Source: Leucoraja ocellata
Taxonomy: Eukaryota
DNA length: 64,000 nt
Direction of reading: 5' to 3'
NCBI GenBank assembly: GCA_036785375.1
Contig: JAWMAR010000478.1
Coordinates: forward strand, 682,001 to 746,000
In this document: positions 19,501 through 22,500 of the stretch, piece by piece
How positions within the stretch are numbered: the first letter of the stretch is position 1
How the letters are laid out: the number at the start of each line of letters is the position of its first letter
Position numbers and translations under genes: made by a program
The notes under the pieces: model-generated
The model's database searches: none
What the model saw: only the letters and a program-made list of their open reading frames with translations
What the model was told of the DNA's origin: nothing

Positions 19501-22500
19501 GCCGTGTTGATCCCTGGGATTCCCGCTTCATTCACTACCTTTTCCTTCCTTCCCTCCTTGTAAAGCCAACCGTGAGGGAATTCTGCTCCTCTCATTGACG
19601 GGGTCACCACCGGCAGGTCGTCGATATGGAACATTAACCCTGGTCCTTTAGCCTTCTGCGGTATTCTAATATTGACTGTCACCTGTCCATCATTGTTTTG
19701 TGGATTAAGTGAATAATATATTAAACTATAATATATTTACCGTAGCCTCCGTTATCATATCCACTTGGCCCACCTGTGGGACAAAAAAACAGACTAGCGT
19801 AAGTAATATTTGATAACGAACTCAGAAATAAACATTAAAGCAGTCATATACAATTTTGTAGCTAAGGAATCTTGGAGTCTACCAATACCTGTGGAGAAAA
19901 ATGTATGCGATGACAAGTTATCGGATCGGGCCCAAACCTACACAACCTAAAAATACACCTAGAAGTCAAGGAAGGCAGGTTGCAAGACTAACATCAACAC
20001 TTCAACACAACTGCCTTAAACTACACTCAATTGCATTGGGCAACCATAAAGGCGAATGTGGAAGCCTCAATAGGCCCGACTATGGGTGCACATGGGATGG
20101 GGACTGGATATTGTGCCTTCCCTCACAATGGGAACCTTTGTGGGGGGATGTTTTTTATGTTTAAATCTCTTTATTATTGTTATAGAACCATAGAAACATA
20201 GAAATTAGGTGCAGGAGTAGGCCATTCGGCCCTTCGAGCCTGCACCGCCATTCAATATGATCATGGCTGATCATCCAACTCAGTATCCCGTACCTGTCTT
20301 TTCTCCATACCCCCTGATCCCCTTAGCCACAAGGGCCACATCTAACTCCCTCTTAAATATAGCCAATGAACTGGCCTCAACTACCCTCTGTGGCAGAGAG
20401 TTCCAGAGATTCACCACTCTGTGTGAAAAAAGTTCTTCTCATCTCGGTTTTAAAGGATTTCCCCCTTATCCTTAAGCTGTGACCCCTTGTCCTGGACTTC
20501 CCCAACATCGGGAACAATCTTCCTACATCTAGCCTGTACAACCCCTTAAGAATTTTGTAAGTTTCTATAAGATCCCCTCTCAATCTCCTAAATTCTAGAG
20601 AGTATAAACCAAGTCTATCCAGTCTTTCTTCATAAGGCAGTCCTGACATCCCAGGAATCAGTCTGGTGAACCTTCTCTGCACTCCCTCAATGGCAATAAT
20701 GTCCTTCCTCAGATTTGGAGACCAAAACTGTACGCAATACTCCAGGTGTGGTCTCACCAAGACCCTGTACAACTGCAGTAGAACCTCCCTGCTCCTATAC
20801 TCAAATCCTTTTGCAATGAAAGCTAACATACCATTCGCTTTCTTTACTGCCTGCTGCACCTGCATGCCTACCTTCAATGACTGGTGTACCATGACACCCA
20901 GGTCTCGCTGCATCTCCCCCTTTCCCAATCGGCCACCATTTAGATAATAGGAACGGGGATTCCCCTCCGCCACCATAGATGAGGCTCGCACCAGGGTCTC
21001 ATCCATACCCTGTAACACTGCTCTCTCTCCCCATCGCCGCACCCACAACAAGGGCAGAGTCACCCTAGTCCTCACCTTTCACCCACCAGCTGGAAAATAC
21101 AACACATAATCCTCCGCCACCTCCGCCACCTCCAACGGGCTCCCACCACTCGCCACATCCTCCCATCCCCCCCATGTCTGCCCCCCGCAAAGACCGCTCC
21201 CTCCGAAACTCCCCCGCCAACCCCTCCCCTCCCTCCCACACCACCCCCTCCCCAGGCCTCGCCGAACACCTCCTCCCGGCCCGCAACAACCCATCTGAGC
21301 TCCCGACGGCTCAGCACCCCAACTCCCCCTCCCACTCCCAACCCGACCTCTCCGTCCCGGGTCCCCTCCACCGCCAGAGCGAGCAACACCGGAAACTGGA
21401 GGAACAGCATCCCACACTCCGCCTGGGGAGTCCACATCCCGGGGGCACAAACACCGAACTCCCCCAGCCCTGCCAGCCCCCGCCGTCTCCTCCCCCTATG
21501 TCTATTTATGTCTATTTTTTTCTTAATGTGCTGCATTGGCAACAAGCATTTCACTACACCTATGGTGTAAGTGACCTATAAATAACCTTTGATCCTTTCA
21601 ACTCAACAGCATTAACATCAACTCAACAGCACTAATCTCAACTGCAGTGAACTCCAGCAATAAACTCATCACAACTGCACTTAACTCCGTTCCACTCAAC
21701 GGCATTCTACAACTGCGTTCCACTCAACCGCAGTGACTGAACTCCACAACTGCACTGAACGCAACCCAATTACACCAAACTCAAGCTAAACTTAACTAAC
21801 CTTAACTACATTCAATTAAACTAACGACAACCGCACTAAACCGAACTAAACTGCACTAAACCCAGCTCAACTGCAGGAAAACCAACTCAACTGCTCGAAA
21901 CTCAAGACGACTGCATGAAACTAAAACTGCACCAACCTACTCAACTCAACTGCATGAACTCAACTGTATTATATTCAACTCAATTAGACCAACTTCAACT
22001 CATCTCAACTGCACTCAACTGCATTGAGCTTGACTCAAGTGCACCATACTAAAATCAACTGCACTAAACCCAACTCAACTGCATATAAACCATTGCAACT
22101 CAACTACAGTACACTCAACTGCAATAAACAAATCTACTAAATTGCAACTAATTCAACTGCAGGAATCCCAAGGCTTCTCAACTGCACTCAACTCAACTCA
22201 ACTGCACTAAAAACTCAACATGAACTCAACTCAACTCTTTACTCAAATCAACTCCACTAAACTCAACCAACCTCAACCCAATTGCATTCAACACAACTGC
22301 GCTAAGCTCAACTCAGCTGCATGAACGTAACTACATAAATCCAACTCAACTCAATTGCACTTAACTCAACTGCACTAAACTCAGCTAAATTCAACTCAAC
22401 TGGCCTAAGCTCAACTCATCACAACAACATCAGCCATGTTGATCCCTGGGATTCCCGCTTCATTCACTACCTTTTCCCTCCTTGTAAAGCCAACCGTGAG

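Follow-up and report, generated by a model that had tools for sequence, protein, structure and literature searches.

A CR1-type LINE insertion in Leucoraja ocellata joined to a Penelope fragment with an ADAR-type A>G cluster

A 64,000-nucleotide stretch of Leucoraja ocellata DNA (the window; positions 682,001 to 746,000 of contig JAWMAR010000478.1, coordinates below counted from its first letter) holds one insertion of about 1.3 kb at 20184-21497, in which the 3' end of a CR1-type LINE (minus strand) is joined to a Penelope fragment (plus strand). About 47 A>G changes lie on one strand and are confined to the part that forms a stem in related copies, so this part is likely the DNA copy of one RNA molecule rewritten by ADAR. 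The insertion is best explained, with a probability of roughly two in three, as the product of a single CR1 retrotransposition event whose 5' part was copied from an ADAR-hyper-edited hairpin RNA via a template switch. The observed parts of this account are the structure of the insertion, the one-strand A>G cluster, the ADAR-type sequence context, the restriction of the edits to what is stem in the closest copies and their presence in short-read contigs. The step through an ADAR-edited RNA is common to this account and to two of its rivals, read-through and capture, and taken across the three it is close to certain.

Anatomy of the insertion and its host site

The window is a degenerate tandem array of 1-3-kb units interrupted by retroelements, and the units alternate AACTC-rich tracts with a conserved 400-700-nt block. 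A reading of the host array as an RNA-gene cluster was rejected, there being no Rfam match. Elsewhere in the window, two near-identical GC-rich and CpG-rich inserts of about 700 nt are located at ~34350-35050 and 40050-40750, and the decayed reverse transcriptase region of a further LINE family was read by eye at ~54550-56300 (+).

Twelve copies of the host motif without an insert were printed from the window and compared; all read uninterrupted across the insertion site. The CR1-type and Penelope fragments abut at 20951, where they share one base (G) as a 1-nt microhomology. No host base separates them and a single target duplication encloses both. This arrangement bears out the earlier note, which had described a minus-strand CR1 3' fragment adjoining a plus-strand Penelope fragment, the pair splitting one host motif and behaving as one insertion. 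The start given there, 20184, stands, and the end moves from 21510 to 21497, where a doubling of 10 nt of host sequence follows (21498-21507 = 21508-21517). The 10-nt duplication starts with the AT of the target duplication, which is itself only 2 nt long, and the left AT is also a 2-nt microhomology with the register of the 8-nt tail repeat of the CR1 part. With a target duplication of 2 nt and a junction microhomology of 1 nt, the case for a single-step origin rests on the shared polarity and the absence of host bases between the parts. The Penelope part also carries a 195-nt internal deletion that the earlier note lacked. Splicing was rejected as its origin because the ends are not GT-AG on either strand, and the 2-nt microhomology at the ends, a weak feature, exists only if the landing site was edited. 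The insertion has no evident function and is likely a fossil of one edited RNA molecule. Feature coordinates are collected in Table 1.

Table 1. Features of the insertion, in window coordinates
Feature	Position	Strand	Basis
Left target-site duplication AT	20182..20183	+	Comparison with 12 empty host-motif copies
CR1-type LINE 3' fragment: 8-nt microsatellite tail, 3' UTR, ORF2 C-terminal end; 5'-truncated; unedited	20184..20951	-	Likeness to other copies and to APE-RT LINE protein relatives
Penelope segment, hairpin loop in the closest copies; unedited	20951..21094	+	0/24 T changed vs L004; inverted arm begins at the 21095 equivalent
Penelope segment spanning the linker, GIY-YIG end and beginning of the 3' UTR; forms the hairpin stem in the closest copies; T>C cluster at 21121-21496	21095..21497	+	48/94 T changed vs L004; 47/87 vs family majority in 21111-21497
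Junction of the 195-nt internal deletion	21257..21258	+	Found only in the insertion and its duplicate
Two edit-created CpG sites now reading CA (21433-4, 21448-9)	21433..21449	+	2/13 edit-made CpG; common to both genomic copies
10-nt duplication of adjoining host sequence at the insertion's 5' junction	21498..21507	+	Sequence compared with empty sites

The CR1-type part is 768 nt long and its tail is an 8-nt repeat at 20184-20205 with no poly(A). Other copies extend beyond 20951, which marks the end here as a 5' truncation. The part is 97-98% like other copies and differs from their majority at 10 of 768 columns, 2 of which are T>C and both at polymorphic columns. It holds 95 T in the most favourable editing contexts, yet it is unedited. 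Protein relatives of its ORF are APE-RT LINE ORFs (2,464 proteins at E<=1e-30 among 4,112 candidates); the closest named ones are skate and ray proteins, up to 94%, and bird LINE ORFs with PF00078, PF03372 and PF14529 reach ~45-56%. A Pfam search of the fragment itself gave no family match. We take the LINE to be probably of CR1 type, given its likeness to the bird LINE ORFs. Two further young minus-strand CR1-type 3' fragments are located in the window at 11429-12240 and 27606-28430; they are 97% like the studied one, and their 5' ends reach only ~45-60 nt further. The local copies were rejected as donors at 96.7-97.0%, against 98.1% for a copy elsewhere (L039). A second CR1-type subfamily, 77-78% like the first, is found at 5513-6138 (+) and from 61990 (-).

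The Penelope family was identified through its other copies by Pfam, with RVT_1 at E=1.4e-7 in L024 and GIY-YIG at E=2e-4 in L015, the latter at 22.0 bits and so slightly below the 22.6 cut-off. The edited fragment itself has no Pfam match.

The mismatch cluster and the hairpin source group

The Penelope part was compared with the majority of 28 family copies over 20950-21495. T>C accounts for 47 of the 62 mismatches on the plus strand, against a single A>G; on the strand that carries the CR1 RNA sense the 47 changes read A>G. The spectrum is unbalanced in the direction that the earlier note had claimed. Each of the remaining 28 copies carries 1-8 T>C over ~742 columns. An APOBEC-type G>A cluster is absent, with 4 G>A and 6 C>T among the 62 mismatches. 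The cluster that the earlier note had placed at about 21110-21495 is confirmed, with its limits revised to 21121-21496. No T is changed from the family majority in 20951-21110 (0/26), compared with 47/87 (54%) in 21111-21497, where neither count includes columns in which T has <60% support or a T replaced by a base other than C.

The edited fraction depends on the 5' neighbour of the adenosine on the minus strand, with values of 20/20 after A, 5/5 after U, 12/18 after C and 10/44 after G (Fisher p=2.0e-9). This is the depletion of G 5' of edited A that had been predicted. In the available text of PMC3113232, ADAR1 follows the 5'-neighbour order U=A>C>G and edits 50-60% of long duplex, and the Xenopus enzyme has no obvious 3' preference. 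The insertion shows the same order, and its edited fraction is 47/87, or 48/94 against copy L004, in line with the ~50-60% ceiling. A preference for a 3' G is absent from the edited sites (20/41 vs 27/46, p=0.39); this test is confounded here with the 5' G, and the 3' G is a secondary feature associated with ADAR2 and human ultra-edited sites. Matches to PF02137 (adenosine-deaminase) in the genome number 35 and lie at several multi-exon loci, which may encode ADAR, ADAT1 or ADAD. These adenosine-deaminase loci are paired across contigs (C1/C1373, C54/C204 and C366/C224; L088-L094), the two members scoring the same or nearly the same, which suggests haplotype duplicates retained in the assembly.

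Many of the best-matching Penelope copies are head-to-head palindromes in which a loop of ~515 nt separates a 0.7-0.8-kb inverted arm from the forward arm. A head-to-head partial inverted repeat is a described feature of Penelope-like elements (PMC3846280, in the part available). Among 50 distinct loci, the inverted arm begins at the 21095 equivalent in 33 and elsewhere in 4, and 13 have none. They were chosen as the best of the 40 candidates scored in each search, out of 4,389 and 2,061, and the amplified palindrome is over-represented among them. The form with the arm at 21095 goes back to a single old insertion that was multiplied as part of a unit of at least 14 kb. The palindromic Penelope lies inside another LINE, in a multi-copy unit of nested LINE fragments at least 14 kb long (L075-L080), and the unit at G000:C198:3239017-3252889 is 94-98% alike between contigs when compared with C4 and C387.

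Once the edited columns are masked, the forward arms of L003 and L004 come closest to the fragment among these best-of-candidates loci, with differences at 13 of 498 positions (2.6%). A tree of 85 rows and 499 columns, midpoint-rooted and built with the edited columns masked, groups the fragment with L003, L004 and L022 (support 96) and with L008 and L020 (93); the node with L003 and L004 alone shows no support value. All five copies bear the 21095 inverted arm. The fragment agrees with the forward-arm and not the inverted-arm variants, which identifies the template as the strand antisense to the ORF. The minus strand of L004 is predicted to fold into a long stem (z=-20). Relative to L004, T is changed at 48/94 stem and 0/24 loop positions (p=6.9e-7), and in non-G contexts at 38/47 and 0/10 positions, respectively (p=2.1e-6). 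The edits appear to be confined to what is stem in the closest copies, which stand in here for the true source copy. Against this reading, editing begins 26 nt into the stem, and the favourable sites 21098 and 21107 near the loop are unedited. A closer source copy that is not palindromic may exist, since the loci are the best of 40 per search and most of them (33 of 50) share one inverted arm. The copy that actually served as source was not found, as 11 differences from L004 other than T>C are left.

Genomic evidence and origin of the insertion

A second copy of the insertion is located on the same contig at C478:972464-973019 (-) and is 99.9% identical: over 3,556 nt there are 3 mismatches and a single gap. 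It lies within an inverted duplication of at least 54 kb and ~99.5% identity that covers part of the window (C478 660-714 kb vs 962-1017 kb). A mirrored haplotype around a scaffold gap was rejected as its explanation: the mirror is found at contig 660-714 kb and fails at 746-756, 790-800 and 823-833 kb, which makes a bounded inverted duplication likelier. The second copy may still be a haplotype duplicate, as such duplicates exist in the assembly. Words from the edited sequence were detected in three sequencing runs from two samples of one study, at shares of 0.95, 0.68 and 0.35, and in none of 8 further listed runs; no RNA run appears among the matching ones, a result that is uninformative on expression. 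Short-read contigs with 0 differing letters were obtained from all three: X1 covers 21095-21408 and 21379-21552, X2 covers 21095-21409, and X3, from the second sample, covers 21236-21393. X1 and X2 may represent the assembled sample. Two of the 13 CpG sites made by the edits read CA, compared with C>T or G>A at 2 of 22 old CpGs, and the CA would reflect methylation decay after insertion. The unchanged short-read contigs, the second copy and the edit-made CpGs reading CA together show that the sequence is genomic and not an artefact. The earlier description of the segment as fixed in the genome holds as far as presence twice in the assembly and in short-read contigs of two samples from one study, and no wider.

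The 3.44-Gb assembly was searched for other edited copies. The T>C-edited Penelope 3' motif gave 2 matches, both from a single event, whereas the unedited motif matched 6,737 times; such a search looks for near-complete editing at one 30-35-nt site with <=2 mismatches and misses lightly edited or older copies. In the same assembly there were 0 matches to the sense-edited Penelope motif and 0 each to the sense-edited and antisense-edited CR1 motifs, counts that have no unedited counts alongside. When 77 sequences (378 kb) were compared all against all in search of runs of >=6 same-type mismatches, no second case emerged; the studied insertion dominates the result, and short runs also appeared in satellite and pyrimidine tracts. 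The CR1 copy at 5513-6138 was rejected as a second edited copy, its mismatch spectrum being balanced. Both the motif and the run searches detect only heavily edited young copies.

In the favoured sequence of events, one of the palindromic Penelope copies in the L003/L004/L008/L020/L022 group would first have been transcribed on the strand antisense to its ORF; no promoter was identified for such a transcript. The antisense RNA would have folded into a stem of ~0.7-0.8 kb with a loop of ~0.5 kb, and an ADAR1-like enzyme would have deaminated about half of the stem adenosines. CR1 ORF2 is proposed to have begun cDNA synthesis at the target on the tail of its own RNA and, after 768 nt, to have jumped to the single-stranded hairpin loop at the 1-nt microhomology. 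Reverse transcription would next have entered the inosine-loosened stem with C written opposite I, skipped 195 nt and ended at 21497, and end joining would have left the 10-nt duplication. The copy would then have passed through the germline, been methylated, lost some CpGs and been duplicated. The edited RNA and the CR1 RNA have the same polarity, and a cDNA started at the CR1 tail would run rightwards to a junction in the loop and then into the stem.

The earlier note had left room for CR1 reverse transcriptase either to switch to or to read through the hyper-edited antisense Penelope RNA, and use of such an RNA is supported. Read-through (5' transduction) retains the ADAR step and dispenses with the template switch: a CR1 inserted earlier in the loop of a palindromic Penelope would have been transcribed jointly with it, and this transcript, after editing in the stem, would have been copied anew from the CR1 tail within it. 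It accounts equally well for the co-orientation, the clean junction and the stem-only editing, and its source loci may be lost, polymorphic or unassembled. However, a scan of the assembly for similar chimeras with a CR1-Penelope junction pattern (up to 2 mismatches) matched only the edited insertion and its duplicate, in an assembly that may be incomplete; no Penelope-loop/CR1-tail junction was found by exact match, and the loops of L003, L004 and other palindromic copies are intact. With no pre-joined source junction a template switch, which we infer, is favoured, and read-through is unlikely. Slightly less probable again is an origin in two steps, in which Penelope or another reverse transcriptase made a separate cDNA from the edited antisense RNA; repair would then have attached it to the 5' end of the CR1, or the CR1 would have landed later exactly on its edge. 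The use of antisense templates by Penelope elements is argued in the available part of PMC3846280, and extra 5' nucleotides are common at truncated L1 ends (14.6%; PMC2912911, in the part available). The 10-nt duplication is likewise a repair-type joining. Against capture are the lack of any host base between the parts, the one target duplication and the common RNA polarity; moreover, no other antisense-edited copy was found against the 6,737 motif matches, though Penelope reverse transcriptase made thousands of copies.

Hypermutation at the DNA level is largely refuted and very improbable. It would require ADAR to have acted on the minus DNA strand while this was paired with sense Penelope RNA, or else a WA-preferring, error-prone polymerase such as Pol eta, and either route could yield one-strand A>G with W 5' of A. 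ADARs do edit DNA in DNA:RNA hybrids in vitro, but the available text of PMC12925331 describes this for dA-C mismatches and base-flipping mutants. WA sites are changed in 25 of 25 cases with almost no A>T or A>C, far above polymerase error, and neither route explains the stop near the stem boundary of the source copies or the sparing of the adjoining CR1. Clusters of same-type mismatches also occur as sequencing errors, described as G-to-A in traces in the accessible part of PMC2873906, and the earlier note had named a base-calling artefact and a C-rich Penelope subfamily as alternatives. The short-read contigs with 0 differing letters and the 99.9% identical second copy refute a base-calling or assembly artefact, and the edited motif is found in no copy other than the insertion and its duplicate, against a C-rich subfamily; the chance of either is negligible. 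The one-step CR1 product with a switch to edited hairpin RNA remains the preferred explanation.

Relation to known systems and significance

In chimeric retrogenes formed by LINE template switching (the U6/L1 type), a LINE 3' part is joined to a different RNA on its 5' side; Buzdin reportedly described such chimeras in 2003, as judged from a title. The insertion resembles these chimeras in the common RNA polarity of its parts and in their enclosure by one target duplication, here of 2 nt. It differs from U6/L1 chimeras in that the LINE is CR1 instead of L1 and the passenger is an internal piece of a hyper-edited hairpin RNA entered at the loop, known from a single case.

Both Rous-associated virus and the avian leukosis virus have ~50% A>G in an inverted-repeat region (Hajjar & Linial 1995; Felder 1994; both via the available part of the review PMC12925331). 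As in these avian retroviruses, about half of the inverted-repeat adenosines became G in an RNA that was reverse transcribed. Unlike them, the insertion is non-viral and non-LTR and is inherited in a vertebrate genome, and the edited RNA does not belong to the mobile element itself but was transcribed antisense from an unrelated retroelement. APOBEC G>A-edited LTR elements are present in vertebrate genomes and other cluster types are very rare, according to the accessible text of PMC4866542. The insertion shares with them a frozen deaminase footprint, visible as a cluster of mismatches of one type that is biased in strand and context, whereas its change is A>G and the RNA was edited before reverse transcription. 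Ultra-edited human RNAs, which show a 3'-G excess in the available part of PMC3197674, likewise combine dense A>G with 5'-G depletion and a long fold-back substrate. Those edits were detected in RNA or ESTs against unedited DNA, whereas here they lie in the DNA and have no 3'-G excess. Titles and abstract openings of the literature, with most subscription papers outside this scope, gave no ADAR-hyper-edited non-LTR insertion in inherited DNA. Particular to this insertion are the foreign antisense passenger RNA and an edit boundary that matches the stem of an identified source group.

RNA edits are not normally inherited. The locus provides direct sequence evidence that an A-to-I hyper-edited RNA entered inherited DNA by a non-LTR route, and from the one locus it can be read which family was the source, where the duplex ended and what the carrier probably was. 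It shows that an ADAR-type activity was at work in a cartilaginous fish, in its germ line or early embryo, and implies a CR1 enzyme able to use a foreign, inosine-rich template. As a rare, functionless singleton in the studied genome, its weight is limited. A broader and tentative proposal, less probable than the account of this insertion, is that germ-cell LINE reverse transcriptases pick up ADAR-melted hairpin RNAs in trans from unrelated loci, enter them at the loop and write A-to-I edits into inherited DNA. Such insertions might then be a recurrent and overlooked mutation class and might serve as single-molecule records of germline ADAR activity across vertebrates. The locus suggests a simple genome-wide test, namely a search of repeat copies for A>G clusters with 5'-G depletion.
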